Shown: positions 40,347 through 62,013, numbered from the stretch's first letter. The stretch: DNA of 64,000 bases from an uncultured bacterium (GCA_964598025.1 CAZRAU010000004.1:10006-74005), one strand, 5' to 3'. Program-made: numbers and translations. The notes: generated by a model from the letters alone, not told the origin.

Positions 40347-40404
40347 AGACAAGCGAGGGGCGAGGTCTTTCAATACTCAACAGAAAGCGGGAGGACACAT
40401 GGCC

Positions 40405-43203: not shown

Positions 43204-43303
43204 CGCCCTCATCCATCCGCATTCCAGCCTGAATGCAGCCAAGCCATCCTCTCATTTAAGATAACATATGGCGGCCTGGGCTTAAAGCGGTGAACCCTAC
43301 GCT

Positions 43304-43514: not shown

Positions 43515-44486
43515 TCAGCCTCGAAAGTCCAGCGTATCCGTAGCCAGATACCTGAACGGCCGTTCGGAGTCAGCCCGGCTGCTCGTATAGCACGCACTGC
43601 AAGTGTTGTTCCGGGTGAAGTTCTCCATCAGGTCGGCCCTGGTCTTATAGGCGGTCATGATCAGCCCGCATGGCGATAGCGTGCCGTCGGGGTTCACCAC
43701 GAGAAAACGGTCGCCGGCCCGGCAATCGGGAATACCTCCATTCTCGAAGAACTCCACTATGTTCCTGAGCACATAATCTGAGGTCCGAATGTTCTTGTTG
43801 GTTCGCTTCAGAGCAATGGTCTCATCCACAAGCTCGCGAAGCTCGGCTACATCGTCCTTTGAGAGGAGCAGTTCCTCCTCGCCGGTTCTCATCGTGGTAT
43901 ATGTGCTGAAATTGACCCGGACCCCCCACTCCCTGCCGAGATCCGCGAACTTCTTCATATCCCTGAAATTGAGTTTCTGGAGGACACAGCTTATATTGAT
44001 GGCCTTGTCCCCATCTGCTTCCAGTGCCTCGACCAGCGATTCTATCCGTTTGAAGAGGCCGGGCAGCTTCCTGAACTCATCATGCCGCTCGTCCGGAAAG
44101 TCAAGAGATATGGAGAAACGATCGACACCCAATTGTCTGAACCTGTCATAACGCTCTTTGGTGAGAAGCCAGCCGTTGGTGGTCATGGCAACATACGGGG
44201 CGCCGCCCGGGACCGCCAAGGCCGAGACCACGTCCTCCACGTCCTTTCGAAGGAGCGGTTCGCCTCCCGAAACAAGGATAGCCAACGGCTTAATCTCCCG
44301 GCATATCTCGCCGAGTCGCTCGGGACTTGCCTGCTCTTCCTCTTCTATGGGAACACCCAGATGGCAATGGCGGCAGCGGGCGTTGCACCTTCGCGTGATC
44401 TCGAAGGATGTACATAGCGGCCCCCTGAAAAGCAACGATCTGAGTCCGCGACCGAGGAGTGCAATGGAGCGCGATGTCGATATCAT
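43515..44486 (-). CDS. Radical SAM enzyme with a partial SPASM/twitch C-terminal domain
   Basis: CNARCRHCH (Cx3Cx2C) motif, SGGEPLL glycine-rich SAM motif, and C-terminal cysteines (IPDC...SPCG...TCSAC). It begins just after the NtrC-type gene ends. The 5' extension of the track ORF overlaps the regulator and was trimmed. Confidence 0.7.
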   Translation of the reverse strand: MISTSRSIALLGRGLRSLLFRGPLCTSFEITRRCNARCRHCHLGVPIEEEEQASPERLGEICREIKPLAILVSGGEPLLRKDVEDVVSALAVPGGAPYVAMTTNGWLLTKERYDRFRQLGVDRFSISLDFPDERHDEFRKLPGLFKRIESLVEALEADGDKAINISCVLQKLNFRDMKKFADLGREWGVRVNFSTYTTMRTGEEELLLSKDDVAELRELVDETIALKRTNKNIRTSDYVLRNIVEFFENGGIPDCRAGDRFLVVNPDGTLSPCGLIMTAYKTRADLMENFTRNNTCSACYTSSRADSERPFRYLATDTLDFRG

Positions 44487-44502
44487 CCGATTGGAGTCCT
44501 TT

Positions 44503-45864
44503 CTAACCGGTTTCCCCCAGTAACCGCTCGAGCTCCTCCGGAGGTATGCCCAGTTCTTCTGCGGCAACGTCTCTGCGGTGGTCGAAGTGCTCGATAGTCT
44601 TCAGCACGTGCTCTCTGATGACTTCACTAAGCTTGCGGGGCGTGAACCCCAACTCAACCGGGGCCTCTTCCCGCCGTATGATTTCCTGAATGTGAAGCGG
44701 CAGGGCTTCAGCGGTGACCGTATCACCCTCCGTGTTCGCGACGGCTCCGGCGATTATAGCTCTGAGCTCCTGCACGTTGGTCGGGAAGCTGTAACCCTTC
44801 AGAGAATCTATGAAGTCGTCCGAGAAGCCCCGGACCTCCCTTCCCACCCGCCGGCTCTCTTCCTTGATAAGCGCGTCCGCGAGCAGCGGGAGATCTCCCC
44901 CCCTGTCCCTCAGAGGCGGCATCCTTATGGAATTCACCATCAGGTGATAGAGAAGATCCCGGGAGAACTTGTCCTTGTACTCCAGGCTAGTCAGATCATG
45001 AGTGGAGGCCACAACCATCCTGACATCGGCCTTTCTGATCTGTGTGGAGTTCTCTCTGTAGTATTCCCCGGTCTCCAAGAACCGCTTGAGGCGCACCTGC
45101 ATGGGTTTCGAGAGGCAATCGATATGATTGAGAAACAACGTCCCATAGTTGGCCTCCTCCAGAAGACCCGGTTGCTCTTCCCTCGATCCGCTCCACGTCT
45201 TGTCCTGTCCGAAGAGAAAGGCCGGAAGACTCTCCGGGTCCTGGCTGTCCACTTCCGCAGCCACAAAGGGCTTGTCCAGGCGTGGGCTGGCTTGATGTAT
45301 GGCCCTGGCAAGCGCCTCCTTGCCCGTTCCACTCTCCCCCCAAATGAAGATTATTAGATCGCTCGAGGCGAGCTTTTCGGCCTGATGGAAGAGACGGATC
45401 ATACCATTGTCTTGAGTCGTGAAGTGGTCGAATGCGTCTTCGTGTTCGAGGTCCTTGCGGGTCAGCTGCTCGGGCAAGGTCTCAATCGTACGGTGCAGCA
45501 AGCTATGCTCCATCGCGTTGTTGAGAACTCCCAGGAGCCTGTCTTCGTCGGCAGGTTTTATGAGGTAGTCGAAGGCGCCCAGTTTCATGGCTTTGACCGC
45601 AAGATCCACATCACTGACGCCGGTCAATACCACCACAGGCGTATCCACTCCCTTCATCCGCAAGTCCTGCATGATATCCATCCCGCTGACATTCGGCATG
45701 TCCATGTCCAGCAAGAGAACATCGAAGGTCTCTTCCTCCATCAGGTCCGCGACATTCCGGGAGTCGTTGACAACGCTGGTTTCAAACAATCCGGTCTGCA
45801 TCAGGAAGACCATCAGGTAGTTGGTCACGGCTGGATCGTCGTCCCCGATAAGGATCTTCTTCAT
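44503..45864 (-). CDS. Sigma-54-dependent response regulator (NtrC family: REC + AAA+ sigma-54 activator + Fis-type HTH)
   Basis: REC domain (LIGDDD, DVLLLDMDMP). GESGTGKE Walker A motif, a GAFTGA-region equivalent and a C-terminal HTH. Overlaps the kinase gene by 4 nt. Confidence 0.85.
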   Translation of the reverse strand: MKKILIGDDDPAVTNYLMVFLMQTGLFETSVVNDSRNVADLMEEETFDVLLLDMDMPNVSGMDIMQDLRMKGVDTPVVVLTGVSDVDLAVKAMKLGAFDYLIKPADEDRLLGVLNNAMEHSLLHRTIETLPEQLTRKDLEHEDAFDHFTTQDNGMIRLFHQAEKLASSDLIIFIWGESGTGKEALARAIHQASPRLDKPFVAAEVDSQDPESLPAFLFGQDKTWSGSREEQPGLLEEANYGTLFLNHIDCLSKPMQVRLKRFLETGEYYRENSTQIRKADVRMVVASTHDLTSLEYKDKFSRDLLYHLMVNSIRMPPLRDRGGDLPLLADALIKEESRRVGREVRGFSDDFIDSLKGYSFPTNVQELRAIIAGAVANTEGDTVTAEALPLHIQEIIRREEAPVELGFTPRKLSEVIREHVLKTIEHFDHRRDVAAEELGIPPEELERLLGETG

Positions 45865-47852
45865 CGGTTTTCCTCCCCGGCCGGCTCCGGGTCCTTCCCT
45901 GCAGGGATCTTAATGGTGAACTTCGTTCCGACACCGATCTCACTGCCCACCAGGATACTGCCTTTGTGTTCTTCGATGATCCTATAGGCTATGGCCAGCC
46001 CCAGGCCCGTACCGCCCTTTGCGCGCTTCGTTGTGAAGAAGGGGTCGAAGATCTGCCTCAAGGTCTTCTCACTCATGCCGTACCCGTTGTCCTCCACTTC
46101 CACGACCACATGGCCATCCTCGCTCCGAGTTCGGATATAGACGGACCCTTTCTTGTCATCCGGCATGGCCTGCCCCGCATTGACAATGAGGTTTATGAGC
46201 ACTTGCTCGATCTTCTGGGTGTTTCCGACAAAGGTGGGCAGATTCCTGGTAAGATCGAGTTTGATGTCCGCGCGTTTGTGGACTTCATTGTGGACCAGTC
46301 TGGCGCTCGCTTCAACCAGCGTATTGATATCCACCTTGTCGACAAGCAGCCCCTCATCCTTACGGGCAAATGAGCGCAGCCCTTCGACAATCGCCTTTAT
46401 GCGCTCGGACCCATGGGCCATGTCCGAGACCAGGGTCATGATGTGCTTTCTGAAGAAGTCGTAATTGAGTCTGGCGATCATAAGATCGGCATGCCGCCCG
46501 TAATAGTCGTCGATGATGGGCAGCATGTCCTCCAGGGCCTGCTTTACTATCTTTATGTTGCCGCGTATGAACTGGTTCGGATTGTTGATTTCATGGCCTA
46601 TGCCGCTCACCAGCTGGCCCAGGGATGCGAGCTTGTCGGCCTGTTGCAGCTGTTGCTCGTAGGTCTTCTCCAAGGTGACATCCCGGTAGAATTCCAGAAT
46701 GCCGTCAACTTCGTGTTCCTTGTTGTAGACAGGGAGCGCATGCACCTGGAAGTACTTGTCATCTTGCCTCATGGAAAGCGTCAGAGGCGTCTTGTCGCTC
46801 AGGATCCGCGCAAGGCGGCAATCCTCGCAAGGCCTTTCACGCCCGAAGATACTATGATAGCAGTGGCCGCCCGCTTCGATACCCTCTCGGTTGGTCATGA
46901 CGATCCGCCGGTTCTTGTCTATGAGCACAACCTCATCTGGAATCGCCTTGAACATGGTCTCGAGCCGGCCCCTCGCCTCCTCCCAGCTGTCGCTCACCCG
47001 GTCGAGATAGGAATTCACGACACCGAGCTTGTCGCGTTGTTCTTCCAACTCCTTGGTCTTACCTGCTATCTCGCGTTCGAGGTTCTCCAGCCGACGGTTA
47101 AACTCGGCTTCCTCCTCCTGCTTGAGCGCAAGCCTGTCCTTGAACTCCTTCCGCTCCAAGGCGAAACTCAGCGCCCGTCCTATCTCCTTGAGCATCTTCT
47201 GCTCTTCGGGCAGCAGCCCGTGCTCCTCGTTGAGGTATCCGACGCGGATTTCACCCTTCTGTCTGCCTCCGACGACAAGCCCCACGAAGATATAATCTTC
47301 CGATGACGGTTTCTGGCCGTATTCCTTCTCCTCGTAGACCGAGTAGACCACTACCTCCTCGGGATAGAGCATACCCTGGCTGAGATACCTCGGCAGTTCG
47401 GTGAAGAAAGAATCAATGGAGGGCGATACCTCAATCCACTCCATGACTCTGTATAGGCAGGCCAGCTCCTTGATTCGCTCCTCCTTGTCGGACACGGAGC
47501 GTCTGGCCAAACCTTCCAGCTTCTGCCCGAAAAACAGGAAGACTTCGCCGTGCTCCGTCGTCGGGAGGTAGCTGCCCTTAAGTGGAATCGAACGCGAGAC
47601 CTCGCCGCAGGGAGAGAAAACCGTGATAGCCCTGCTCCTGGCCCGGGCCAGTGCCATGGCCGACCGGAAATTCTGTAACGATGTGCCGGTGACCAGGTCT
47701 TTCATCTTCGGCTTGCGGCCCCGCCACCCGCCGGGGAGGCAGTCCTTACCGAAGAGGTCGCTGGCATGGAGCACCCTTTCGGCGCCGTCCAACACCAACA
47801 AGTAGTCGAAACTACCCTCCATGAAGTCATAGAGATCAGAGAGTTTGATCAA
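45861..47852 (-). CDS. Cytoplasmic sensor histidine kinase (coiled coil, PAS-like domain with a Cys cluster, HisKA, HATPase_c)
   Basis: H-box GHEINNP, N-box LINLIVNAGQAMPD, G-boxes DNGYGM and GTGLGL. The PAS-like region has HCYH...RPCEDC. No TM helices. Confidence 0.8.
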   Translation of the reverse strand: MIKLSDLYDFMEGSFDYLLVLDGAERVLHASDLFGKDCLPGGWRGRKPKMKDLVTGTSLQNFRSAMALARARSRAITVFSPCGEVSRSIPLKGSYLPTTEHGEVFLFFGQKLEGLARRSVSDKEERIKELACLYRVMEWIEVSPSIDSFFTELPRYLSQGMLYPEEVVVYSVYEEKEYGQKPSSEDYIFVGLVVGGRQKGEIRVGYLNEEHGLLPEEQKMLKEIGRALSFALERKEFKDRLALKQEEEAEFNRRLENLEREIAGKTKELEEQRDKLGVVNSYLDRVSDSWEEARGRLETMFKAIPDEVVLIDKNRRIVMTNREGIEAGGHCYHSIFGRERPCEDCRLARILSDKTPLTLSMRQDDKYFQVHALPVYNKEHEVDGILEFYRDVTLEKTYEQQLQQADKLASLGQLVSGIGHEINNPNQFIRGNIKIVKQALEDMLPIIDDYYGRHADLMIARLNYDFFRKHIMTLVSDMAHGSERIKAIVEGLRSFARKDEGLLVDKVDINTLVEASARLVHNEVHKRADIKLDLTRNLPTFVGNTQKIEQVLINLIVNAGQAMPDDKKGSVYIRTRSEDGHVVVEVEDNGYGMSEKTLRQIFDPFFTTKRAKGGTGLGLAIAYRIIEEHKGSILVGSEIGVGTKFTIKIPAGKDPEPAGEENR

Positions 47853-48021
47853 ACCTACAGCTCCTCTCGATTGCCGGTCCTGACACTCCGGCCCACTCCA
47901 TCGGTCCCCACAGGAGCGGGGACGCTACGAATCGAGAACTCGGGTTACGCCCTGTAGCATCGGCTCTCCGCAGCCGACGTTGGGAGCGCCGAACACGGAA
48001 GGCCGGCGCCGCAAAGGTCTT

Positions 48022-51000
48022 TCAGGCGCGAACCCTGAATCTCTCGGTTCCCACTTCCCTGATTTCCTTCTTGTATTTCTCCCCGTGGGTCAAGGGGGGT
48101 TGAATAGACACGGCCTTGGCTCTCACCGCAGTAGCAACCAATCGCTCCGGATATGCAGACGTACGGGACTCGCCGGTATTCCAGTAGTAGCAGGAGAGCG
48201 ACCCAAGATTCTTCCCGACGAGGCGTTTCAGATCGGCAGTCAGGTCCGCAGGTGTATCCATGCCGAACTCGCGCGCAAGCCCCTGGAGAACCTCTCTTCC
48301 GGACACGGTCGCGGGCGGCTCCACGGCCCGTGAGAACCCGACAAGCCTTCCCTCGAAGTTGCACCTGGTCCCCTCGGTTTCAAGGTATGTCGATCCGGGC
48401 AGGACAACATCGGCATATTCCGTGGTCTCGGTGTTCGTCCAATCCATCGCGGCCAGGAATTCCACGTTTTCGAACCATGCGCCGGTCCGTCCCCAGGCCA
48501 TAGGGTCTTCTCCGATTACAAGTGCAGCCCTGAGTCCCCCGCTATGCAAAAGGTCCCTCAGCTCCCCGTGACGCGACGCACCGGCAAGCCCCCTCGCGCT
48601 CACAACTCTGCCTGCGGCAAAAGCCGGATCGGCCCCCATTATCTCGAGTGCAGCACTGTTGGCATTGATACGCGGGAGGAGAAGTTCGGCCGTGACCCCC
48701 GTGGCCCGCAGGAGCACAACCAAATTCGCCAGTGTCTCCATGTCATCCGCGGCCCTGTCCTGGGGCCTGTCGGGACTATGGACAATGACCACTCTCCGCG
48801 CTTCCTTTATGAACCCGGCAGTCTTGCGGATGTCCGCAGCTTCGATCCCGGACAGCTCGGCGCCGTCTGCGACACAGAGATTCATGCTGCCGAGGAACTC
48901 ATCCGAACCCGGGATGCCCTCAAGGGCCGCCGATGTGAAATGGCCTTCATCCAGCAGGGCCTTTATCACCGAGTTCCAGAGAATCGCCGCCGTGCCCCGC
49001 ATTGGGTCCATCGCAACAGCCGATATCAGGCGGTCGATCTTCCCAAGGGCGGAGTTCGCGACAATCAGCCGGGCCCCCTCCTTGGTCCGCTGTATGACAT
49101 CGACAGCCAGCACCTGGTGGTCGGCTTCCAGCGAAGTGTTATTGCATATGATCAGATCGGCTTTTGCGATGGAAGACCTGTCGGCAGTGGAGGCAGTGTA
49201 CCCCAGCGATCTGTCAAGCGCTCCTGCTTCCTTGTCCGTCCCGAGAATAGAGAGTGATCCCACATTGCTCGTGCCCAAGCCTTCCCGGGCAATCCTGCCG
49301 GCCAGATAGAGTTCCTCATTGGTGAGATCGGGCGACACGAAGACCGCCACCTTGTCGGGGCCATGCGCTTCGGCGACCCGTCTCATCTCGGATACGATGA
49401 GCTTCTGGGCATCACAAAGATCGGCCTTTTGCCGCTCACTTCCTCGCCGTATCACAGCGTCCCTTATGCGCTGCCGCTTGACGAAGAGCTCGTATCCGAA
49501 CCTTCCGTAGCGGCAGAGGTAGTCCCCCGGGATGCCGGACGGCCCGATGTAGTAGCGTCCTTCACCGAACCTCTTCACCGTGACCGGGCAGGCCAACGAG
49601 CAGAAGCCGCAATGGGAAGCCGCATCATCCGTACGAAGCGGCGCCCGCCCCGGGAAAGGATACTTGACGGTCAGAGCCCCTGTCGGGCAGGAGTCCACGC
49701 AGTTGCCGCAACTGGTACAGCTGGTTTCCACAAGCGGATCATTGAGGGCCGGTCTCATTTCGGTCCTGAAACCTCTACCTATGAGCCCAAGGGCCGGAAT
49801 CGCCAGCTGCCTCGCACATGTCCTTATGCACCTGGTACAGAGGATGCACTTGTTGGGATCATAGATTATATACGGGTGACGATCGTCCACCTTGTGCTTG
49901 CGGACATATCCTTTGTAGCGTTCCATGTCGACGCCGTATTCCTCGGCGTAGAGCCGGAGTTCGCAATCATCGAATCTCAAGCACCCGCATGAGAGACACC
50001 GGTCGCACTCGTGTGCATTGTCTTCGAAGTCAAGCCCGGTCGCCACCTCCCGGAAACTCCCCCTTCGCTCTTCCACATCGATCATGTTGACTTCGTGGCG
50101 AGGGCTTTCCTGTACGTGCCCGAGGTCCGCCCTGCCCGGTTTGCCCCAGAAGTCCTTCCGCACCACGAAGGCCTTGATCGCCAGTTCTTCCCCCGTGATT
50201 CGGGAATGTATGGCACGCGCGGCCCGCCGGCCGTCTCTTATGGCATCTATGGCCACCGTGGGGCCGTCGTTGACGGCATCGCCGCCGGCAAAGAGGCCGT
50301 CTACGTTGGTTCTCATGGTCTCTTCATCGACTGTGAAGGTACTCCACTTCGTGCGGCCGACGTCCTCACCGCCCGCCGAGGTAAGCCCCTTGAGCACCGG
50401 GTTCTGCCCGATCGCGGCGACCGCAAGGTCACAGGGAAGATCGTATTCGGATCCCTCCATCGGTATGGGCCGACGGCGTCCGGATTCGTCCGGCTCGCCC
50501 AGTTTCATCCGTATGCACCGAAGCGCCTTGAGTCTCCCCTTGTCGGCGACTATCCCCACAGGAGCGACCAGCTCGGTGATCTCAATCCCCTCGTCAAGAC
50601 AGTCTTCGATCTCCATCTCGTCGGCGGGCATCTCGGCCTTGGTTCGCCGGTAGAGTACTATCACTTTGTCGGCCCCGAGCCGCCAGGATGTGCGGGCAAC
50701 GTCCATGGCGGTGTTGCCCCCACCTACGACCACAACCGTACCCGACACAGGCTCCGGATTGTCCACTTTCTCACGCAGAAAATCCACGCCGGATACCACG
50801 CCTTCGGTCTCGAATTCACCCTCGACCCGCATCGGCTTCCCCGCCCATGCTCCCGTGGCGATAAAGACCGCATCATGTCGCTTGAGGAGATCGTCGAGAG
50901 TAACATCTTCCCCAACTCTGACGTTGTACTTGATCTCGGCGCCGGTCCTGCAGATGAAATCCACCTCGGCGTCTATCACATCATCCGGAAGCCTGTAGGT

Positions 51001-51723
51001 CGGAATACCATAACGGAGCATCCCACCGGACCTCTCCTGGGCCTCGTAGAGAACCACCTTGTGGCCCTTCAGTCCCAGGAACCAGGCCGCCGTGAGTCCG
51101 GCCGGGCCGGCCCCGGCTATTCCCACCGTCTTGCCCGACGGCGGATCGCACTCCGGCGCTCCGTCGTAGGTTCCAGGCGCATCGGTGACGAAGCGCTTGA
51201 CCGCATTGATGCCGACCGGCTTATCCACCTCGCCCCGCCTGCACACCACCTCGCACTTGCGAACACAAACCCTTCCGCATATGGCCGGCAGGGGATTGGT
51301 CTCCCTTATGAGATCGACCGCTTTCCTGTACTGCCCCATGGCCGAGAGAGCGACATAGCCCTGCGCATCGACGCCGGCAGGGCAACCCTCACGGCAGGGA
51401 GCGACGCAGTCCGCATAGTGGTTGGACAGCAGGAGCTCCAGCGCCGTCTTACGGGCGGCAATGACACGGGCATTCCGGGTCTCCACTTCCATGCCTGGAG
51501 CGATCCTGGTCGCGCAAGCCGGGACAAGATTCCAACGACCCTTGACTTCCACCACACAAAGGAAACACGAACCGTAGGGCTCTAGATCCGGGGAATAACA
51601 GAGCGTGGGTATGTGGTCGAGATCACGCTCTCTCACCACTTCAAGGATGGTCTTTCCCGGGTCGGCTTCAATCTCTTTGCCGTTGATCGTGATCTTGATC
51701 TTATCTGTGGTTTCGCTTTTCAT
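48022..51723 (-). CDS. NuoG/HydA-like large subunit with an inserted GltD-like FAD/NAD(P)H domain and a molybdopterin-oxidoreductase-fold C-terminus (StnA / NfnA-like subunit of a Bfu-family bifurcating enzyme)
   Basis: N-terminal 2Fe-2S domain (KITINGKEIEADPGKTILEV, CxxC...C). GltD-like dinucleotide fold GIAGAGPAGLTAAWFL...YEAQERSGGMLRYGIP. 4Fe-4S CxxCxxC motifs. The C-terminus has a NuoG-like DVVLPGSTYLETEGTRCNFEGR. The start overlaps the NuoF-like gene (ATGA). Confidence 0.6.
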   Translation of the reverse strand: MKSETTDKIKITINGKEIEADPGKTILEVVRERDLDHIPTLCYSPDLEPYGSCFLCVVEVKGRWNLVPACATRIAPGMEVETRNARVIAARKTALELLLSNHYADCVAPCREGCPAGVDAQGYVALSAMGQYRKAVDLIRETNPLPAICGRVCVRKCEVVCRRGEVDKPVGINAVKRFVTDAPGTYDGAPECDPPSGKTVGIAGAGPAGLTAAWFLGLKGHKVVLYEAQERSGGMLRYGIPTYRLPDDVIDAEVDFICRTGAEIKYNVRVGEDVTLDDLLKRHDAVFIATGAWAGKPMRVEGEFETEGVVSGVDFLREKVDNPEPVSGTVVVVGGGNTAMDVARTSWRLGADKVIVLYRRTKAEMPADEMEIEDCLDEGIEITELVAPVGIVADKGRLKALRCIRMKLGEPDESGRRRPIPMEGSEYDLPCDLAVAAIGQNPVLKGLTSAGGEDVGRTKWSTFTVDEETMRTNVDGLFAGGDAVNDGPTVAIDAIRDGRRAARAIHSRITGEELAIKAFVVRKDFWGKPGRADLGHVQESPRHEVNMIDVEERRGSFREVATGLDFEDNAHECDRCLSCGCLRFDDCELRLYAEEYGVDMERYKGYVRKHKVDDRHPYIIYDPNKCILCTRCIRTCARQLAIPALGLIGRGFRTEMRPALNDPLVETSCTSCGNCVDSCPTGALTVKYPFPGRAPLRTDDAASHCGFCSLACPVTVKRFGEGRYYIGPSGIPGDYLCRYGRFGYELFVKRQRIRDAVIRRGSERQKADLCDAQKLIVSEMRRVAEAHGPDKVAVFVSPDLTNEELYLAGRIAREGLGTSNVGSLSILGTDKEAGALDRSLGYTASTADRSSIAKADLIICNNTSLEADHQVLAVDVIQRTKEGARLIVANSALGKIDRLISAVAMDPMRGTAAILWNSVIKALLDEGHFTSAALEGIPGSDEFLGSMNLCVADGAELSGIEAADIRKTAGFIKEARRVVIVHSPDRPQDRAADDMETLANLVVLLRATGVTAELLLPRINANSAALEIMGADPAFAAGRVVSARGLAGASRHGELRDLLHSGGLRAALVIGEDPMAWGRTGAWFENVEFLAAMDWTNTETTEYADVVLPGSTYLETEGTRCNFEGRLVGFSRAVEPPATVSGREVLQGLAREFGMDTPADLTADLKRLVGKNLGSLSCYYWNTGESRTSAYPERLVATAVRAKAVSIQPPLTHGEKYKKEIREVGTERFRVRA

Positions 51724-53498
51724 TTGGTATAGATCGCCTCGAATCTGCAGCTTGCGATGCACTGGCCGCACCTAACACACTTCTCGTTGTCGATGACGTG
51801 CACCTGCTTGGGTTCGCCTGTTATCGCCTCTACCGAACACTTCTTGGCACAGAGCGTACAGCCCGTGCATTTCGCCGGATCGATATGAAAGTCCACCAGT
51901 GCGGTGCACGCCCCGGCCGGACAGCGCTTGTCGTTTATGTGTGCGTCGTACTCGTCGCGATAGTACTTGATCGTGGTGATAGCCGGGTTCGGCGCGCTCT
52001 GGCCCAGACCGCAGAGGCTCGCTTCCCGGATCCGGTTTCCCAGTTCCGTGATCTTCTCGGTATCCCCCGGCTCTCCCTCCCCCTTGGTTATCCTGGTAAG
52101 CATCTCCAGCATCCGGCGCGTGCCTACCCGGCAGAAGGTGCACTTGCCGCAGGACTCGTTCTGGGTGAAATCCAGAAAGAACCTGGCGATCTCCACCATG
52201 CAGGCGGTATCGTCCAGCACCACAAGGCCTCCCGATCCCATGATCGCCCCTGTCGCCGGAATCGACTCGAAATCGACGGGCGTATGGTCCAGGGCGGCGG
52301 GGATACAGCCGCCGGAGGGCCCCCCCATCTGGACGGCTTTGAACTCCCTGCCGTCCTTGATGCCCCCACCGATTTCAAACACCAGATCGTGGATGGTCGT
52401 GCCCATAGGCACCTCCGCCAGGCCGCCGCGCAGCACCTTACCGGCGAGCGCGAAGACCTTGGTCCCCTTGCTCTTCTCCGTCCCGTAAGCGGCAAACGCC
52501 TCAGCGCCGTTGGATATGATCCAGGGGACGTTGGCATAGGTTTCCACATTGTTATTGTTGGTGGGCTTGGCCCATAGTCCCTTCTCCGCAGGGAAGGGGG
52601 GTCTTATCCGCGGCATGCCGCGCTGTCCTTCGATAGAGGCAAATAGCGCCGTTTCCTCACCGCAGACAAAGGCGCCGGCGCCTTGCTTTATCTTTACATC
52701 GAAGTCGAAACCCGAACCCAGAATGTCCCGGCCCAGATAGCCCTTCTGTCTCGCCGCCTCAATGGCAAGCATGAGCCGCCGTATGGCCAGAGGGTATTCT
52801 GCGCGGCAATAGATGTAACCCGCGGCAGCCCCTATGGCCCTCGCGCAGATGATCATGCCTTCAAGGACGGCATGGGGATCGCCCTCCAGTACCGAGCGGT
52901 CCATAAAGGCACCCGGATCGCCCTCGTCGGCGTTACATACGACGTACTTGACGTCGCTGGCTTGCCCGGCGGCGAAAGACCATTTGAGCCCGGTCGGAAA
53001 ACCGGCTCCTCCCCTGCCCCTGAGCCCCGAGTCCTTGACCACCTGGATAATGGCTTCCGGGGTCATTCCGGCCAGCGCCTTGCGAAGGGCCTCGTAACCT
53101 CCGGCAGCCTCGTATTCCTCCAGTGATTCCGGATCTATGGAGCCGCAGTTTCTAAGAACGATGCGCTTCTGGAGCGTGAGATACCGGGCCTCACTCCCGC
53201 CGGAGGCACCGTCCTCATCAAGCCTGTAAACCACATGATCGTCAAGTACCTTGCCGCCGGCTACATGCCGCTCGAATATCTCTTCGGCGAGCTCCGGCGT
53301 CACCTCACCGTAGATGGTGCGGGTTCCATTGTCCCTCACCTCGACCAGAGGCTCCCTGTAGCACATGCCGATACAACCGGTACGGCTGAGCCGGAAACTC
53401 TCCGGGTGCTCGGCGAGGATTTCGCTCAACCTGTCGTAAGCAGCCTGCGCTCCTGCCGAAAGACCGCACGTGCCCATTCCAACGATTACTTTCTTCAT
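51720..53498 (-). CDS. NuoF/HydB-like NADH-binding flavoprotein subunit (N-terminal thioredoxin-like 2Fe-2S, FMN/NADH site, C-terminal 2x[4Fe-4S])
   Basis: MKKVIVGMGTCGLSAG, GRGGAGFPTGLKW, a NuoF-type 4Fe-4S motif region, and a C-terminal ferredoxin with CTGCTLCAKKC and CVRCGQCIASC. Confidence 0.8.
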   Translation of the reverse strand: MKKVIVGMGTCGLSAGAQAAYDRLSEILAEHPESFRLSRTGCIGMCYREPLVEVRDNGTRTIYGEVTPELAEEIFERHVAGGKVLDDHVVYRLDEDGASGGSEARYLTLQKRIVLRNCGSIDPESLEEYEAAGGYEALRKALAGMTPEAIIQVVKDSGLRGRGGAGFPTGLKWSFAAGQASDVKYVVCNADEGDPGAFMDRSVLEGDPHAVLEGMIICARAIGAAAGYIYCRAEYPLAIRRLMLAIEAARQKGYLGRDILGSGFDFDVKIKQGAGAFVCGEETALFASIEGQRGMPRIRPPFPAEKGLWAKPTNNNNVETYANVPWIISNGAEAFAAYGTEKSKGTKVFALAGKVLRGGLAEVPMGTTIHDLVFEIGGGIKDGREFKAVQMGGPSGGCIPAALDHTPVDFESIPATGAIMGSGGLVVLDDTACMVEIARFFLDFTQNESCGKCTFCRVGTRRMLEMLTRITKGEGEPGDTEKITELGNRIREASLCGLGQSAPNPAITTIKYYRDEYDAHINDKRCPAGACTALVDFHIDPAKCTGCTLCAKKCSVEAITGEPKQVHVIDNEKCVRCGQCIASCRFEAIYTK

Positions 53499-53581
53499 AC
53501 TCCGCTTTCCAGGTCTCGCATTCACTCAGTCACGACCCGATCTCAAACCACTGCATCCCGGATGCGGCCCGCCCATGTCGG

Positions 53582-54100
53582 TCACCCCCCATCCAAGCAT
53601 GCGCCCTTGGCTTCCTTGTGCCGGGCCGTTTGCTCCTGCCGCCTGTAACCCTTGAGCACCTTACGTACCGAAGCAGGCGTGAGGCGGCCATGGGTCTCGT
53701 CATCCACCATCATGACCGGCGCAAGCGAGCAACATCCCAGACATGCCACCGTGTTCAGGGTGAAAAGACCGTCTTCGGTCGTGTCGCCGACCTCTATGCC
53801 CAACTCATCCTGAATAGCCTCGGTGATCCTCTTGGCCCCGGAGACGTGGCAGGCGGTACCTTCACAGACCCGGACCAGATGCTTGCCCATCGGCTGCAAT
53901 CTGAACTGGCTGTAAAAGGTTATCACGCCGAAAACATCGGATTCAGGTATTCCGGTCACGCTGGAGATGTAGCTGATGGCCCTTCTGGGGATGTAACCGA
54001 AGTGATCCTGTGCCGATTGGAGCAAGGGGATCAGCTCCCCCGGAGCCCCATCGTAGCGCCACAGTCTGTAGGTGAACTTATCTTCCTGTCTTGCCGCCAT
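53582..54100 (-). CDS. NuoE/HydC-like 2Fe-2S subunit
   Basis: VCEGTACHVSG and VACLGCCSLAP cysteine motifs. 172 aa. Confidence 0.8.
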   Translation of the reverse strand: MAARQEDKFTYRLWRYDGAPGELIPLLQSAQDHFGYIPRRAISYISSVTGIPESDVFGVITFYSQFRLQPMGKHLVRVCEGTACHVSGAKRITEAIQDELGIEVGDTTEDGLFTLNTVACLGCCSLAPVMMVDDETHGRLTPASVRKVLKGYRRQEQTARHKEAKGACLDGG

Positions 54101-54204
54101 TTTCCCTCTCGGCGATATCCGGTTTCCGCGCCCCCTTCATAATTCCGGCTGCGCCGGGCCGTCCCGCCACGCAGCCTTTCGAGGGCCGTCTGTATGAAGC
54201 AACC

Positions 54205-55197
54205 TCAATCCTCAACCAGTTTGATGATCGTGGCCTCACGTACCCTGCGCACGCCGTCGATCTCGTTGAGTTTTTCAAGGATGGTCGATTTGCGCCCGAC
54301 GCCTTCACTGGTAATCATGCCCACCAGTTTCTTGCCCTCTTCGATAACGTCGCAGAATATGACATCGTTTATGAAGAAGACGGTTGTAAATATCTGCTGA
54401 ATGGCGTTGGGATCGATGTCGACAATGATATAGCTCATCGTACCCGGCTGCATTGCCGACTTGACCTGGGCCGGCTGCTTCATGGCTTGCGCGTATATCT
54501 TCACGAACTCGTCCACGTCGCGGTCGAGCTTCGGCCGCTCGACGGGCGACATCGAAGCGATCTCGACGCCCTCCATCTTGCGGATCTTTTCGAAAACAGT
54601 CTTGACCTCCTCTTCTGAGGAGCCCTGGGCCAGGACGATGATGTCGAAATCCCCCCTCACCGCTTCGCACTTCTGAACGCCTTCCATCTTGTGGAGTTCG
54701 TTGAAGATCTCCATGCTCCTGGCCGGATCGGTGATTCTGATGGTCAGGTAGGCACTGACCGATTCTCTCAACCCGGTATCCGCAGCCTCATCTTCCGCCG
54801 CCACCAACTCCTTTGTAGAGCCGGGGGAAAGCTCTTCCAGCGCCTCCACGAGGTCAGGAATCTCGAACGGCTTGTCTAGATACCCCGTGTTGTGCTCGGA
54901 CAACGCCGTCATCTTCAGCGATTCGTCGCCGAAGCCCGTGATCACAAGCACCGGCAGGTCCGGATACTGGACCTTGATCACTTTGAGTATCTTCAAACCG
55001 TCTATGTCCGGCATGAAGATGTCTGTAACCAGGTAATCATAGGTAATGCCCTTGCCGCGGGCCTGGTTCAGTTCGTGAATCGCTGAAATGCCGTCGGGAC
55101 AGGCCACCGCTGTGTAGCCCTCTTGCGTGAGTCCAACCGTGAGATTCCGCCGAATCTCAGCCTCATCGTCGATAATAAGAACGCGGCCTTTCAACAC
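54205..55197 (-). CDS. Atypical response regulator: REC + two tandem Lrp/AsnC-type (RAM/ACT-like) ligand-binding domains, with no DNA-binding domain
   Basis: REC domain (LIIDDE, YLVTDIFMPD, VITGFGD, LDKPF). Two repeats of about 75 aa fit the AsnC_trans_reg pattern (YLTIRITDP...VRGDFDIIVLAQG...GVEIAS and YIIVDIDPN...FCDVIEEG...GVRRV). Confidence 0.55.
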   Translation of the reverse strand: MLKGRVLIIDDEAEIRRNLTVGLTQEGYTAVACPDGISAIHELNQARGKGITYDYLVTDIFMPDIDGLKILKVIKVQYPDLPVLVITGFGDESLKMTALSEHNTGYLDKPFEIPDLVEALEELSPGSTKELVAAEDEAADTGLRESVSAYLTIRITDPARSMEIFNELHKMEGVQKCEAVRGDFDIIVLAQGSSEEEVKTVFEKIRKMEGVEIASMSPVERPKLDRDVDEFVKIYAQAMKQPAQVKSAMQPGTMSYIIVDIDPNAIQQIFTTVFFINDVIFCDVIEEGKKLVGMITSEGVGRKSTILEKLNEIDGVRRVREATIIKLVED

Positions 55198-55492
55198 AGA
55201 CCTCCTATTGAACTGAAGACCATAAGATACGGGGCAAGCAACCGCCTTACCCCGTCTTGAGGTTATCTATACACCTCTAGCATAATCTCCCATAGAACGA
55301 TAGCCCCCAGCCCCCCACTTGTCAAACGATTTCCAGGCGCGTATTACCCATCCCAGGGCCCTCCGGGGCGGCCTGACCGGCAGATATCTTTTCGATACCC
55401 GGCTTGTGAAAAGACTTGTCTTTAGGGCGCAGGCCTGGTAGGAAGTACAGTGATCCTTGCCGGATTTACGGCATAGCGGAAAGTGACGCCAT

Positions 55493-57808: not shown

Positions 57809-57961
57809 GCGAGCCGGGCAGGGCAGGAGACCGAGGTTGGCGTGGGCGGCCGTATCATCATGGTCGCAGGGGCGCGGCTTGATTAACCGTTTACCTGACC
57901 CGTGCTTTCTGGTATAATACAGTATAGACATAGCCGGAATACGAAGATCGGTGTGAGTGAT

Positions 57962-59809
57962 ATGCTATCCAAGATTGCTTTCTATGTCGGGGTCGCCTGT
58001 CTGGCTATGGTTCTCTTTTCCGGGGCCACCGCGGCTACTCTCAAGATCCACTGCCTGGATGTCGGCCAGGGTGATTGCACGCTGATAGTCTCCCCCACAG
58101 GCGGTACTTTTCTCTTCGATGCCGGCGAGAACGGCAAGGGTAACCAGGTCGTCGTACCTTATCTGCAGAGCTGCAGCTTCCAGGCACTCGACTATATCGG
58201 AGCCTCACACTATCACTCGGACCATATAGGCGGCATAGACGAAGTCGTCAGCCAACTCGGGATCGATTCGGTGCGGATCGCCGTCCTGGACCGCGGCTGG
58301 TCGTATACGACCCCGACTTACGATGATTACGCCGCCGCCGTGGCCGCCAAGCGGACCACCATAACCGACGGCCAGGTCATAGACCTGGGCGGCGGGGTCA
58401 CAATCAAGTGTCTGGCCGTAAACGGCAATGGCGTGCTTTCTCCACCCTTTGATGACACCTATGATGAAAACGATCTATGCGTAGCCCTGCTTGTCAGCTA
58501 CCTCGATTTCGACTTCTTCGTGGCCGGCGACCTGCCGGGAGTCAATAGCTCTTTGTACCACGATATCGAGACATCGGTTGCCTTCGAGGCCGGGGCTGTC
58601 GAGGTGTACCAGGTCGACCACCACGGCAGCAGCAGCAGTTCCAATGCCGCTCTCGTGTCCGCGCTGTTGCCACAGGTGTCCATCATATCTGTAGGTGACG
58701 GGAATTCCTACGGCCATCCACACCAACCCACAATAGACCGGCTGGTTGCCTACGGCAGCTATATCTACCAGACCGAAACGGGGTCGGGGGGAACGATTCC
58801 CACAGGGTGCGGCGAGGTGGTCAACGACAACATAGTGATAGAGGTCGATTCCTCTTACTACAGTGTTAACGTAACGGATATCTATGAGCTCCGTGATGAC
58901 GCAATACCGATAAGCGATGTGAACGAAGACGACACCTACGGTGAGCCGACCCTGTTGGGTCAGGTGGTAAGCATAAGGGGTATAGCTACGGTCGCCACGG
59001 GGACTTTCTCGGCAGCGGACAACGACATCTTCTTGCAGGATGCTACAGGCGGCGTGAACGTATTCAGATCGGGCAACATGACGCCTGCCGTATCGGTGGG
59101 GGACAGCCTCAAGGTCACGGGGTTGGTGGATGTCTATGCGGGCCTTACCCGAATCACGAGCCCGAATATCAATATCGAGGCCGTGGGGATGGAGGCACCC
59201 GATCCGATCCTTGTAACCACAGACGCCATAGATAGCGACGGCGAGTCATACGAGGGCTCGCTCGTCAAGATCACCCGATGCGCCATCACAGGCGGCACGT
59301 GGCCGGCCGAAGGCTCGAACGGGACCCTGACCATAGACGACGGCAGCGGTGGGTGTACGCTCTTCATAGACAAAGACACCGACATAGACGGAACCACCCA
59401 ACCTGACACCACATTCGACCTGGTCGGCATCGCGAGCCAGTACGATCCATCCTGGCCTTACCATGCAGGGCACAGGATTGTGCCACGCTCCACCGCTGAC
59501 CTGGGTCCCTTCGCCGGCGTGATCCCCCAACTGGTCCATGCGACGGCCATCGTGAGCGTGCTCCCGAACCCGACGCGCAAGCAGCTGCGTATGGCCTTTG
59601 CCGAGGAGATCGCCGAGAGCCACAAGCGCCTCACGCTCTATGACACCGCCGGACGAAAGCTGGGTGAGACCTTCTCAGGTCCCGGCACCAAGACCATCGA
59701 GATCGACCTCAAGACTCTTTGCGGATATGAGATCCCTTGCGGCATCTATTTCGCCACCGTCACTACCCCCGAGCACAGGGCAACCGTGAAGATCGTGGTC
59801 ACCCGGTAG
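57962..59809 (+). CDS. Secreted metallo-beta-lactamase-fold (ComEC/Rec2-like) hydrolase with an OB-fold-like region and a T9SS C-terminal domain. Possible extracellular nuclease
   Basis: Signal peptide. Metal-binding motifs HCLDVGQGDC...SHYHSDHIGG...VDHHGS. A mid-region similar to OB-folds of extracellular nucleases. C-terminus VLPNPTRKQLRMAF...LTLYDTAGRKL...GIYFATV...KIVVTR. Confidence 0.6.
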   Translation: MLSKIAFYVGVACLAMVLFSGATAATLKIHCLDVGQGDCTLIVSPTGGTFLFDAGENGKGNQVVVPYLQSCSFQALDYIGASHYHSDHIGGIDEVVSQLGIDSVRIAVLDRGWSYTTPTYDDYAAAVAAKRTTITDGQVIDLGGGVTIKCLAVNGNGVLSPPFDDTYDENDLCVALLVSYLDFDFFVAGDLPGVNSSLYHDIETSVAFEAGAVEVYQVDHHGSSSSSNAALVSALLPQVSIISVGDGNSYGHPHQPTIDRLVAYGSYIYQTETGSGGTIPTGCGEVVNDNIVIEVDSSYYSVNVTDIYELRDDAIPISDVNEDDTYGEPTLLGQVVSIRGIATVATGTFSAADNDIFLQDATGGVNVFRSGNMTPAVSVGDSLKVTGLVDVYAGLTRITSPNINIEAVGMEAPDPILVTTDAIDSDGESYEGSLVKITRCAITGGTWPAEGSNGTLTIDDGSGGCTLFIDKDTDIDGTTQPDTTFDLVGIASQYDPSWPYHAGHRIVPRSTADLGPFAGVIPQLVHATAIVSVLPNPTRKQLRMAFAEEIAESHKRLTLYDTAGRKLGETFSGPGTKTIEIDLKTLCGYEIPCGIYFATVTTPEHRATVKIVVTR

Positions 59810-60084
59810 GGTCTTCGCCGGACGTTCCCGCCGACCGGGAGTCCCCACAGTCTTCCCCAAAACGGCGAAATCCCCCTGTCCCACTTAGAAATCACCGTAA
59901 TCCATTGAAGCCAGATCAGTGCGAGAAGCAGAAATCACTTTTCGGGGAAACTCCTGAGGTTTTGACCCCTTGACAACTGCGACTTTTCGGGTAATCTATC
60001 AAGTACAGCGTCGATTCCCCCTGTTTGGCTGGTGTATCTCTTTGCGCGTTTCTCCGACTCGTTCCCCTGAGGAGGTTGCAAAGC

Positions 60085-62013
60085 ATGCATGCGGCACGAA
60101 TAAGCAGTCTGGTCTTAGTCGTTCTTATGCTCAAGGCCCTCACTGCTGCCGGAGCTGAAATCCATCAGGCCGTCATCGACGGGAACGTGGAGCGCGTGGC
60201 CGAGCTCCTCAAGGCCGATCCGGGTCTGGCCATGGTACCGGATGAGAACGACCGGTTCAGCAGCCTGCCCCTTCACCTGGCGGCAATACACGGGCATGTC
60301 GATATCGCCGAGCTCCTGCTGAGGGCGGGGGCCGACGTAGACTGCGGCGACAGCGATGAGAGCACTCCCCTCCACAATGCGGGCCTCAATCGGCATCCCG
60401 AGATGCTGGCGTTTCTCCTTGAAAACGGGGCCGACGTCAATCGCCGGGACAGAAACGGAGCATATTCGTTGAGCTTCGCCGCTTCAGGAGGCGACAGCAC
60501 CTGCGTCCGGATGGTTCTGGATGCCGGGGCGGATCTCAACTACTGGCACCCCCAGGGCTTCACCCTGCTCCACTTCGCCTGCTCCCGCAACCTCTACGAC
60601 CTGTTCGACAGACTCATCGCACATGGTGTGGACATAAATGCCGCTACCCAAACCGGGACAGCCCCACTGCACTGGGCCGCCCTTCGTGCGGACGCCGCGA
60701 TGCTCAATGCGATGCTCGATGCCGGGGCAGATCCCTCGCCGGCCGATGAGCACGGCCAGACACCACTAATGGGCGTGAGCTTCGGGGGCAACATCGAAGC
60801 TGCCCGAGTCCTGCTTTCCCGGGGTGCCGATCCCAATGCCGCCGACGAGAACGGTTACACTCCGCTTCACGCCGCCTGCCGCGGAGCAGGCGCGGAGTAC
60901 GTTAAGCTTCTTCTTGACTCCGGTGGCGACGCCAATATGGCGAATCAACGCGGCCAGACAGCTCTTTCCATTGCCGTCGAGGCCGGCGACCCGGATGTCG
61001 TCGAAGCCCTTCTCGTAGCAGGAGCCGATACGAATGTGGCGGAGGCCAACTTCGGATGGTGCCCGCTCCACACGGCCGCGACTCAGGGCTACTCAGATGT
61101 GGCCCGGTGCCTGCTCGAGCACGGAGCACGCGTAAGCTGCGAGGCCAAGGACCGCTCTACGCCGCTCGATCTGGCGGTGCGCTACGGAAACCGGACGGTA
61201 GCAGATGTCTTGCTGGCGCGGGGCGCGGCCGGTTCCACCTCAGGCATTGACGCGCCCACGCTTGCCGGCCAGGGGGATTGCGCCGTGGGAGAAGCGGTTG
61301 TCTGGTACCTCAATCACAGCGGGTGGGCCGTGAAGACACGTGACCACTTCCTCATTTTTGATTACTTCAACCCGGGCCGCGCACCCGAAGAGCCCGGCCT
61401 GTGCAATGGGTGCATCGAGCCTTCAGAAATCGCCGGGGAGCATGTGACGGTGTTCGTGACCCACGAGCACGGAGACCATTATGACCCGGCAATCTTCGAA
61501 TGGCAGGAGACCCTCCCGAACGTCACTTATGTGCTCGGCTGCCCGATCCAGGAGGAATATCCCCACATCTTTATGGAGGGCCGGCAAGAACGCGAAATAG
61601 ACGGGATGAAAGTCACCACCATAGAATCCAACGATACGGGCGTGGGTTACCTTATCGAGGTCGATGGCCTGGTGATATTCCATGCCGGGGATCATGCCAA
61701 CCGTCACCAGGATTTCTCTGGTCCTTTCAAGGCCGAGATAGCCTATCTTGAGCAAAAGAGCGTGAGGCCGGACATAGCCTTCATGCCCATATCCGGCTGC
61801 GGTTTCGGCGATCAGGTTGCCGTCAAGATGGGGGTCTATCATGCCCTGGATGCGCTGAAGCCTCTGGTATTCCTGCCCATGCATGCAGGCGGCGGGGAGT
61901 TCCGCTATCACGAGTTCATAACCGACGCCAAACAGGAGTTCCCTGATATAGAAATGCGCGCTCCAAAAGCCAGCGGCGACCACTTCCGCTACCGCGACGG
62001 CGGCATAAGCTGA
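60085..62013 (+). CDS. Secreted ankyrin-repeat protein (about 11 repeats) fused to a C-terminal MBL-fold domain
   Basis: RBS GAGGAGG and a signal peptide. Repeated TPLHxAxxxGH modules. The MBL domain has motifs THEHGDHYD and HAGDH. Confidence 0.7.
   Translation: MHAARISSLVLVVLMLKALTAAGAEIHQAVIDGNVERVAELLKADPGLAMVPDENDRFSSLPLHLAAIHGHVDIAELLLRAGADVDCGDSDESTPLHNAGLNRHPEMLAFLLENGADVNRRDRNGAYSLSFAASGGDSTCVRMVLDAGADLNYWHPQGFTLLHFACSRNLYDLFDRLIAHGVDINAATQTGTAPLHWAALRADAAMLNAMLDAGADPSPADEHGQTPLMGVSFGGNIEAARVLLSRGADPNAADENGYTPLHAACRGAGAEYVKLLLDSGGDANMANQRGQTALSIAVEAGDPDVVEALLVAGADTNVAEANFGWCPLHTAATQGYSDVARCLLEHGARVSCEAKDRSTPLDLAVRYGNRTVADVLLARGAAGSTSGIDAPTLAGQGDCAVGEAVVWYLNHSGWAVKTRDHFLIFDYFNPGRAPEEPGLCNGCIEPSEIAGEHVTVFVTHEHGDHYDPAIFEWQETLPNVTYVLGCPIQEEYPHIFMEGRQEREIDGMKVTTIESNDTGVGYLIEVDGLVIFHAGDHANRHQDFSGPFKAEIAYLEQKSVRPDIAFMPISGCGFGDQVAVKMGVYHALDALKPLVFLPMHAGGGEFRYHEFITDAKQEFPDIEMRAPKASGDHFRYRDGGIS

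Follow-up and report, generated by a model that had tools for sequence, protein, structure and literature searches.

A receiver-tandem RAM protein encoded next to an NfnABC/StnABC-type transhydrogenase in uncultured bacteria, a candidate regulatory partner of the NuoE-like subunit

The DNA analysed here (hereafter the window) is a stretch of 64,000 nucleotides from an uncultured bacterium (GCA_964598025.1 CAZRAU010000004.1:10006-74005). The locus of interest consists of four open reading frames (ORFs) at 54205..55197, 53582..54100, 51720..53525 and 48022..51771, all on the minus strand, as an earlier note made from the sequence alone had placed them. The first gene (54205..55194) encodes a protein of 329 amino acids when counted from a TTG codon at 55194, with the ORF itself reaching a GTG at 55197. 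We call this protein REC-2xRAM, after its receiver domain and two tandem RAM domains, and its possible role as a regulatory partner of the enzyme encoded downstream is the subject of this text. The next gene (53582..54100) encodes NfnC/StnA, a NuoE-like [2Fe-2S] subunit of thioredoxin-like type (PF01257, 2Fe-2S_thioredx, E-value 1.8e-52), and is followed by the gene for NfnB/StnB, the NuoF-like FMN/NAD(H) subunit (51720..53525, with a likely start at the ATG at 53498; Pfam Complex1_51K and NADH_4Fe-4S), and by that for the large subunit NfnA/StnC. The most likely start of the latter is the ATG at 51723, which we preferred because of its ATGA overlap with the stop codon of the NuoF-like gene, so that the gene spans 48022..51723; the NuoG-like ORF of the earlier note thus stands, with a likely product of 1233 rather than 1234 amino acids. 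The same note had grouped REC-2xRAM correctly with the nfn genes, but it left out two further minus-strand genes of the cassette, which encode a histidine kinase (45861..47852) and an NtrC-family response regulator (44503..45864).

The enzyme is of a known kind. Pfam domains in the large ORF follow the order Fer2_4, Fer4_20 and Pyr_redox_2 (the GltD/NfnL-type insert with two [4Fe-4S] clusters, FAD and an NADPH site, 50188..51408), Fer4_Nqo3 and Molybdopterin, the last being a cofactor-less, FdhF-like domain of molybdopterin fold at the carboxy-terminal end (48253..49620; PF00384, E-value 4.4e-17). An FAD motif (GAGPAG) and NADPH motifs (GGGNTA and YRR) were recognized by eye in the translation of NfnA, and the GltD insert also matches the NfnI large subunit 5jca_L and GltD 6s6s_G. 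NfnB carries two Fer4 domains at its carboxy-terminus (amino acids 547-599) and a thioredoxin-like extension at its amino-terminus, where a weak 2Fe-2S_thioredx match was found (amino acids 15-85). When the three subunits were compared with structures in the PDB, NfnA matched best the NfnA of C. saccharolyticus (9bov_A, E-value 1e-232, 779 bits, colinear over residues 25-1173), followed by StnC of S. ovata (8oh5_C, E-value 1.5e-219, 735 bits) and by 9n5u_A, which was deposited as NfnA (E-value 4e-178, 598 bits). The matches to the formate dehydrogenase subunit FdsA (6tg9_A, E-value 2.6e-59, 204 bits) and to HydA (about E-value 1e-40, ~142 bits) were far weaker. NfnB has full-length matches to StnB (8oh5_B, E-value 2.9e-252, residues 12-598 against 2-581), to 9bov_B and to 9n5u_B (E-value 1.6e-245), while the best matches of NfnC are 9n5u_C, deposited as NfnC (E-value 2.6e-52), 9bov_C and StnA (8oh5_A).

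At the position of the molybdenum ligand, the window sequence SILGTDKEAGAL aligns with ARVCHSPTGYGL of Rhodobacter capsulatus FdsA (6tg9_A), so that GTDK stands in place of Cys/Sec-His; residue by residue, 'ILGTDKEAG' lies opposite 'RVCHSPTGY', and neither the ligating Cys nor the catalytic His is present. StnC and the NfnA of C. saccharolyticus are likewise degenerate here, with a gap or a residue other than Cys. Since all three subunits match three solved Nfn/Stn complexes best and the molybdenum ligand is lost, the three genes are, as judged from sequence, an ordinary member of the Bfu-type NfnABC/StnABC transhydrogenases, as the earlier note had proposed on the grounds of the NuoE/NuoF/NuoG-like genes, the GltD insert and the cofactor-less carboxy-terminus; the retained molybdenum ligand and the closer match to formate dehydrogenases that would have spoken for another enzyme were not found in these comparisons. 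By homology, the enzyme would reversibly couple the oxidation of NADPH to reduction of both NAD+ and ferredoxin at the same time; the assembly typical of the family is a tetramer of heterotrimers. Enzymes of this type keep the NADH, NADPH and ferredoxin pools of anaerobes in balance. The ligand loss and the domain order agree with published descriptions, in which StnC has a 2Fe-2S amino-terminus like that of Fe-hydrogenases, a GltD part and a NuoG part whose FdhF-like domain is catalytically inactive (PMC10482914), and in which the pterin site of C. saccharolyticus NfnA is incomplete (PMC11829005).

The window therefore resembles C. saccharolyticus NfnABC (9BOV/9BP5) and S. ovata StnABC (8OH5/8OH9), both of the Bfu family, in subunits, gene order, domain order of the large subunit and the lost molybdenum ligand. 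The A, B and C subunits of a further Nfn complex (9N5U/9N5V) are also homologous to those of the window, but 9n5u_A is shorter (963 amino acids) and covers only residues 21-759 of the query, whereas the window NfnA has the full bacterial-type carboxy-terminus. We presume that 9N5U/9N5V is an archaeal Nfn-Bfu.

The receiver domain of REC-2xRAM (amino acids 1-121, 54832..55194) was recognized by Pfam as Response_reg (PF00072, amino acids 6-120, E-value 2.6e-24) and has D9, D10, D58, T86 and K108. Of 40 diverse members of the family, 31 retain the phospho-acceptor D58. The first RAM repeat (amino acids 146-219, 54538..54759) matches AsnC_trans_reg (PF01037, amino acids 163-214) with 30.4 bits against a cutoff of 25. 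It carries the motif 'CEAVRGDFD', in which C176, G181 and D184 are among the best-conserved positions of the family and in which the G-D-x-D hairpin presumably corresponds to part of the Lrp/AsnC effector site. The Pfam NapD model also matches this repeat, with 28.0 bits, exactly at its cutoff. The second repeat (amino acids 252-324, 54223..54441) has diverged and lies below Pfam detection in the window protein, where NapD (E-value 0.12) is the sole match. It was instead identified with hhalign and AlphaFold2. Indeed, profiles of the two repeats built from 26 diverse members align with each other over 73 columns (hhalign 99.3%, E-value 1.7e-20), the repeats of the window protein itself find each other in an internal BLASTP comparison (E-value 5e-4), and four relatives have two PF01037 matches above threshold. 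G314 in the second repeat is invariant. Neither Pfam nor NCBIfam yielded a helix-turn-helix or any other DNA-binding domain in the protein, which, as judged from its domains, would not be a full-length Lrp/AsnC transcription factor, since its amino-terminus is a receiver domain and not a winged helix. The architecture predicted in the earlier note, a receiver domain with two tandem RAM domains and no DNA-binding domain, is thus upheld: its RAM-like repeats are detectable with profiles, and of the domains it expected in a scan of 54205..55197, Response_reg and the first AsnC_trans_reg were found by Pfam, whereas the second was missed by Pfam and is supported by the other comparisons.

The AlphaFold2 model of the full-length protein (pLDDT 91.6, pTM 0.87) consists of the receiver domain (amino acids 1-121), a disordered linker, a βαββαβ unit (146-219), a helix (225-239) and a second βαββαβ unit (252-324). 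A model of the carboxy-terminal part alone has the same two βαββαβ units (pLDDT 90.1), and pTM across models was 0.84-0.87. We used this shorter model in fold searches, because the Foldseek matches of the full-length model were dominated by receiver domains (root-mean-square deviation, rmsd, 1.3-2 Å). Its matches were two-domain α+β barrels (HemQ, Cld and NirDL; TMq 0.53-0.64) together with Lrp/AsnC proteins. From the predicted secondary structure, the pTM values and these matches, we read the two RAM domains as a putative intramolecular dimeric α+β barrel, equivalent to the RAM dimer of Lrp/AsnC proteins. The whole 2xRAM module is acidic, with an isoelectric point of about 5.

The best of these matches are heme or siroheme enzymes, namely coproheme decarboxylase (9mhq), NirDL (4ch7, TMq 0.64) and chlorite dismutase, and each repeat has a conserved Cys at the corresponding place (C176 in 34 of 40 representatives, C281 in 35 of 40). 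The barrel might then be a redox sensor that binds a redox-active or tetrapyrrole-type cofactor, or that uses the two cysteines, an idea which could be combined with a regulatory role on the enzyme. We regard it as quite improbable. The matches are weak (E-value about 1e-4, rmsd 5-9 Å, 9-13% identity) and come from a common fold to which RAM dimers also belong, the cysteines are replaced by V, I, L, A or T alone, as expected for a buried position and not for a ligand, and there is no conserved His among the best-conserved positions. Binding of heme or a metal by the barrel was accordingly rejected as a candidate function, given matches at the level of the fold alone and conserved cysteines that are swapped for hydrophobic residues.

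With the 206 carboxy-terminal amino acids of REC-2xRAM as query we found 651 close homologues, and almost all of the 120 matches listed are about 328 amino acids long; one of 329 amino acids (P0001) is 100% identical to the window protein over the queried part. Among 1.84 billion representatives, the family forms 117 clusters at 50% identity, most with 310-345 amino acids and some with 160-220 amino acids and no receiver domain. Public annotations name these homologues 'response regulator', 'CheY-like' or 'NapD'; among the NCBIfam models none is specific to them.

We then examined genomic context in a scan with one genome per species, which gave 65 loci with a full-length REC-2xRAM homologue, and added individually fetched contexts for the linkage counts. 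The gene immediately downstream encodes a NuoE homologue in 68 of the 69 loci with enough downstream sequence, which answers the question of co-occurrence raised in the earlier note. This order continues with NuoF in 62 of 63 loci and with NfnA in 53 of 54, so that the NuoE-like, NuoF-like and large NuoG-like genes are arranged as they are in the window. Linked loci were found in genomes labelled as Eisenbacteria, Krumholzibacteriota, Fermentibacteria/Aegiribacteria, Latescibacterota, Planctomycetota (Phycisphaerae and Brocadiia), Acidobacteriota, Elusimicrobiota (Elusimicrobiales) and others. The linkage is kept in three loci where identity in the RAM part has dropped to 23-30%, and also with three proteins called without a receiver domain. 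One of the latter (P0179) is complete and not truncated, since 185 nucleotides of sequence lie upstream of it; the other two (P0157 and P0134) start within about 40 nucleotides of a contig end. In 20 loci, mostly labelled Fermentibacteria or Aegiribacteria, the gene directly upstream of REC-2xRAM, at a distance of about 1.2-1.4 kb, is a separate GltD/NfnL-like gene, whose product is ~40% identical to the GltD insert of NfnA.

In some lineages the linkage has gone as far as fusion. A protein of 342 amino acids (P0233) combines a 2xRAM module (amino acids 12-175) with a complete NuoE-like domain (amino acids 198-332; PF01257, E-value 1e-47), and it is encoded identically on two independent contigs (L091 and L092), in both of which the genes for NuoF and for a large subunit with GltD and molybdopterin domains come next. 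The large subunit is complete in L091 (1210 amino acids, with GltD and Molybdopterin domains) and cut by the contig end in L092, and neither locus has a separate NuoE gene. With P0233 as query, eight more clusters of full-length fusions were found, with identities down to 31%. They include a protein from a Myxococcota metagenome-assembled genome (HUU02535.1), one from a Bacteriovoracaceae metagenome-assembled genome (MCK5073222.1) and one on a 2.4-Mb contig, where the locus continues with NuoF and a large subunit of 1204 amino acids. When the profile of receiver-linked 2xRAM modules was aligned with the amino-termini of the fusions, both repeats were covered (hhalign 100%, E-value 1e-42, 167 columns). 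Public annotation names the fusions simply 'NuoE'. No kinase or NtrC-like gene adjoins the fusion in L091 or L093, the two fusion loci with enough flanking sequence, so two-component genes appear to accompany the receiver domain. Since some lineages have the 2xRAM module in one chain with the NuoE-like subunit, and others encode it directly upstream of that subunit, the module most likely works in physical contact with it.

The NapD match to the first repeat, together with the 'NapD' annotation given to several homologues by JGI, raises the question of whether 2xRAM could instead be a maturation or assembly chaperone that serves either the complex, rich in Fe-S clusters, or the large subunit, which resembles a molybdoenzyme. 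The partner enzyme does have a molybdopterin-fold domain and the operon linkage is tight. NapD, however, has one domain, with which it binds the twin-arginine signal peptide of NapA, and in the translations we found no twin-arginine motif in the amino-termini of NfnA, NfnB or NfnC, nor is there a napA gene. Moreover, the molybdopterin domain of this enzyme is cofactor-less, PF01037 outscores NapD and the GD.D motif of RAM type is conserved. The single βαββαβ fold of NapD resembles one RAM repeat, whereas REC-2xRAM has two such domains, a RAM signature and linkage or fusion to NuoE; a chaperone controlled by phosphorylation or fused to a subunit would also be unusual. We consider a chaperone role rather remote.

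Downstream of NfnA, the histidine kinase has PAS_4, HisKA and HATPase_c domains and the NtrC-family regulator a receiver domain, an AAA+ domain (PF00158, E-value 2.8e-37) and a lid, all by Pfam. This pair of genes is found downstream of NfnA in 29 of the 40 loci with enough sequence, on the convergent strand in two of the 29. The PAS domain of the kinase contains three cysteines, C331-x10-C342-x2-C345, a spacing that is invariant in 29 of 29 aligned orthologues (amino acids 331-345), which suggests a candidate metal, Fe-S or thiol redox-sensing site; no membrane-spanning segment was obvious by eye in the kinase translation. In the NtrC-like protein the GAFTGA motif is replaced in all aligned orthologues by 'TWSGSR' or 'DWSGxRE' (TWSGSR in the window), and the Walker B motif of the window copy reads 'LNHID', with Asn-His in place of Asp-Glu. 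Although the AAA+ fold is present, we thus rejected an identity as a sigma-54 enhancer-binding protein, and the regulator probably acts without sigma-54 or ATP hydrolysis. A sigma-54 promoter was also searched for and rejected: there is no match to TGGCAC-N5-TTGC with two or fewer mismatches in 55198..55492, and the count across the window is below the shuffle mean, which is consistent with a regulator that lacks GAFTGA. A radical SAM gene on the same strand (43515..44567), which shares 65 nucleotides with the end of the NtrC-like gene, was rejected as a member of the cassette, as its best NCBIfam matches (MoaA, AhbD and NirJ) are far below cutoff and no homologue was found in any related locus.

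About 100-130 nucleotides upstream of the REC-2xRAM start, a promoter-like site of sigma-70 type (TTGACA-17-TATCGT, 55297..55325, minus strand) agrees with the consensus at 10 of 12 positions and is the best promoter match in the region. In 46 of 64 loci, the REC-2xRAM orthologue is likewise preceded, at a similar distance, by a TTGAC(A/T) -35 box. In ten loci of Krumholzibacteriota type, the conserved element CAGATATAGCGAAAWTAT abuts the TTGACA -35 box of the operon promoter, in the 70 nucleotides upstream of it (about 55326..55395 in the window), and may be a binding site for a regulator; the window has only the loosely similar AAGATATCT, further upstream. The spacer between REC-2xRAM and NuoE (54101..54204 in the window) often contains a strong GC-rich hairpin, as in L017, L028, L043, L054 and L058. 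Among related loci no conserved sequence was found in these spacers, and folding of the window spacer is no better than that of shuffled controls. A regulatory RNA was therefore rejected for the 5′ leader, this spacer and the spacer between NfnA and the kinase gene: folding z-scores were -0.29 and -1.27, and Rfam gave one sub-threshold match, to CRISPR-DR29 in the NfnA/kinase spacer (47979..48012, minus strand; 23 bits against a gathering score of 39, E-value 0.45), which we take as a chance hairpin because there is no repeat array.

We propose, with a confidence that is about evenly poised, that REC-2xRAM is a dedicated regulatory partner or subunit of the Nfn enzyme which acts on NfnC, the 2xRAM module being the regulatory module of NfnC. 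The 2xRAM barrel would dock on or next to the NuoE-like subunit, and phosphorylation of the receiver would switch its effect on the enzyme; we propose control by phosphorylation because in this lineage the module has an amino-terminal receiver domain. The likely kinase would be the co-located PAS histidine kinase with its Cys-rich domain, and the conserved GD.D site of the first RAM repeat may take up a small-molecule effector; an amino acid in that role is a guess, as in the earlier note. The other partner of this kinase would be the NtrC-like regulator without GAFTGA, which would handle transcription, probably from a promoter of sigma-70 type. Contact with NfnC, the direction of the effect, the pairing of kinase and receiver, and any ligand are all inferred. 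The thioredoxin-like domain of NfnC/StnA has been proposed to move and thereby gate electron flow to ferredoxin (PMC10482914), which would make NfnC a sensible target.

The earlier note had described the protein as a regulator. Its regulatory role, with REC and RAM domains, is kept here, but we judge a partner acting at the protein level to be likelier than a transcription factor, given that the module is fused to the NuoE-like subunit elsewhere. A role in gene regulation has to be weighed nonetheless. In that case REC-2xRAM would be a connector or phosphate sink in the pathway of the kinase and the NtrC-like regulator, or it would set nfn transcription as a RAM hetero-oligomer with an Lrp/AsnC or NtrC-like protein. 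RAM is indeed the effector and oligomerisation domain of Lrp/AsnC transcription factors, the kinase and NtrC-like genes are co-located in 29 of 40 loci, and the REC-2xRAM gene comes first in the operon behind a conserved promoter. Stand-alone RAM proteins also form hetero-octamers with full-length members of the family (PMC2995911). However, several lineages have 2xRAM fused to the NuoE-like subunit of the enzyme, and the fused and receiver-less forms keep their linkage to NuoE without adjacent two-component genes. The linkage to nuoE (68 of 69) is also much tighter than that to the kinase (29 of 40), no Lrp/AsnC protein with a helix-turn-helix was found among the window genes scanned, some ORFs lying outside that scan, and the REC-2xRAM protein is acidic and devoid of a helix-turn-helix. 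Taken with these points, a role in gene regulation seems unlikely to us.

Several observations weigh against the proposed partnership with NfnC. RAM domains descend from modules of transcription factors. In the protein itself, the phospho-acceptor Asp is absent from 9 of the 40 diverse representatives and the GD.D motif is missing from the second repeat. At the level of the locus, the spacer between REC-2xRAM and NuoE is typically about 100 nucleotides (104 nucleotides in the window), looser than between true subunits, and in 11 of 40 loci the kinase and NtrC-like genes do not adjoin the operon. A distant member (about 25% identity; L005:196-5645) precedes NuoL-, NuoH- and NuoB-like membrane genes and not nfnCBA; these genes look like a membrane module of group-4 hydrogenase or complex-I type, and the family may serve other ferredoxin-linked complexes as well. 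The S. ovata stn genes have metVF on one side, pabAB on the other and no regulator beside them (PMC7483475), and the S. ovata and C. saccharolyticus enzymes are purified, and function, as three-subunit complexes (PMC7483475, PMC11829005). Finally, binding to NfnC and an effect on activity are predictions from sequence and genome context. A more specific form of the partnership we hold more tentatively, as possible but below an even chance: REC-2xRAM would be a fourth, dissociable subunit that binds the mobile NuoE-like subunit and gates the bifurcating core, and its two inputs would be phosphorylation by a redox-sensing kinase and a metabolite that binds to the RAM barrel.

Compared with C. 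saccharolyticus and S. ovata, the window and at least 65 other species-level genomes differ in that REC-2xRAM precedes the operon and that the kinase and NtrC-like regulator usually follow it. The hosts are different too: those reported here are uncultured Eisenbacteria, Krumholzibacteriota, Fermentibacteria, Planctomycetota and others, whereas C. saccharolyticus and S. ovata are Firmicutes. On the side of the RAM domains, Lrp/AsnC proteins and stand-alone RAM proteins such as P. horikoshii DM1 and S. tokodaii STS042 share with REC-2xRAM the βαββαβ fold, the G-D-x-D hairpin and the geometry of a dimeric α+β barrel. REC-2xRAM differs from Lrp/AsnC in having no helix-turn-helix, two RAM units in one chain in place of a homodimer, and a fusion to a receiver or to NuoE; its genomic partner is a redox enzyme, in contrast to the amino-acid metabolism genes of Lrp/AsnC. 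The small subunit of acetohydroxyacid synthase (IlvH/IlvN-type, with tandem ACT-like domains) offers an analogy, and not a family relationship, as a tandem ferredoxin-like ligand module that binds a catalytic partner and relays control by small molecules to it. It gives a weak fold match to the 2xRAM model (6vz8_F, E-value 4.9e-3), but a receiver domain is absent and the enzyme under its control is another one. To our knowledge, RAM domains that are not part of transcription factors have no established function. What stand-alone RAM proteins do in the cell is described as unclear (PMC2995911).

The window also encodes a two-gene 2-oxoacid:ferredoxin oxidoreductase (29566..32224, minus strand), made of a POR/POR_N/PFOR_II fusion and a subunit that binds thiamine pyrophosphate, which likely supplies reduced ferredoxin for the Nfn complex. 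On the plus strand, an acetate kinase (PF00871, E-value 1e-147) is fused in one ORF to a carboxy-terminal receiver domain with an apparently complete phospho-acceptor set (35419..37083), just downstream of a REC-HisKA-HATPase hybrid kinase (34337..35467, plus strand). The acetyl phosphate that acetate kinase produces can serve to phosphorylate receiver domains, and this fusion may be a second local case of a receiver attached to an enzyme of central metabolism. Together, the 2-oxoacid:ferredoxin oxidoreductase and the acetate kinase make a ferredoxin-linked fermentative metabolism plausible. Elsewhere in the window, many degradative proteins of secreted type are encoded in 8791..15833, 26964..29495, 38134..43242 and 57902..62013. 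They include four sulfatases (one of them TPR-fused), a C25 peptidase, a protein of metallo-β-lactamase fold with a weak Por_Secre_tail match just under the cutoff, an ankyrin-repeat protein fused to a Lactamase_B_3 domain and, in an ORF of 945 amino acids (40405..43242), a putative glycoside hydrolase with a secretion tail, as judged by eye from the translation.

In the parts of the literature on Stn, NfnABC and Bfu enzymes that were accessible, these are described as unregulated machines of three subunits, with no mention of a regulator or a fourth subunit. Within the same limits, in openly available sources, a single match was found for a receiver-RAM regulator or for a regulator of a Bfu enzyme, namely a remark, in the accessible portion of Galperin et al. 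2018 (PMC5847659), that the output domain of the uncharacterised thaumarchaeal REC-NitrOD1 proteins is a possible variant of PF01037. This appears to be the nearest published precedent for the architecture, likened to REC-2xRAM by description alone. REC-NitrOD1 is archaeal and lineage-specific, and as far as that portion goes has no reported link to a Bfu enzyme (PMC5847659). What is new here is thus REC-2xRAM as an undescribed partner protein, its near-invariant linkage to nfnCBA and the 2xRAM-NfnC fusions, whereas the kind of enzyme is known.

A conserved partner gene that bears sensor domains, and that is sometimes fused to a subunit, would point to control of electron bifurcation at the protein level. 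If the proposed partnership is true, it would give the tandem RAM module a physiological role and a binding partner. In its more specific form, with REC-2xRAM as a dissociable fourth subunit, an electron-bifurcating enzyme would for the first time be seen under the direct action of two-component signalling, and the 2xRAM-NfnC fusions would be a hard-wired version of this control, independent of phosphorylation. Such control would be widespread in abundant uncultured phyla, among them Fermentibacteria, Krumholzibacteriota, Eisenbacteria, Planctomycetota and Acidobacteriota.

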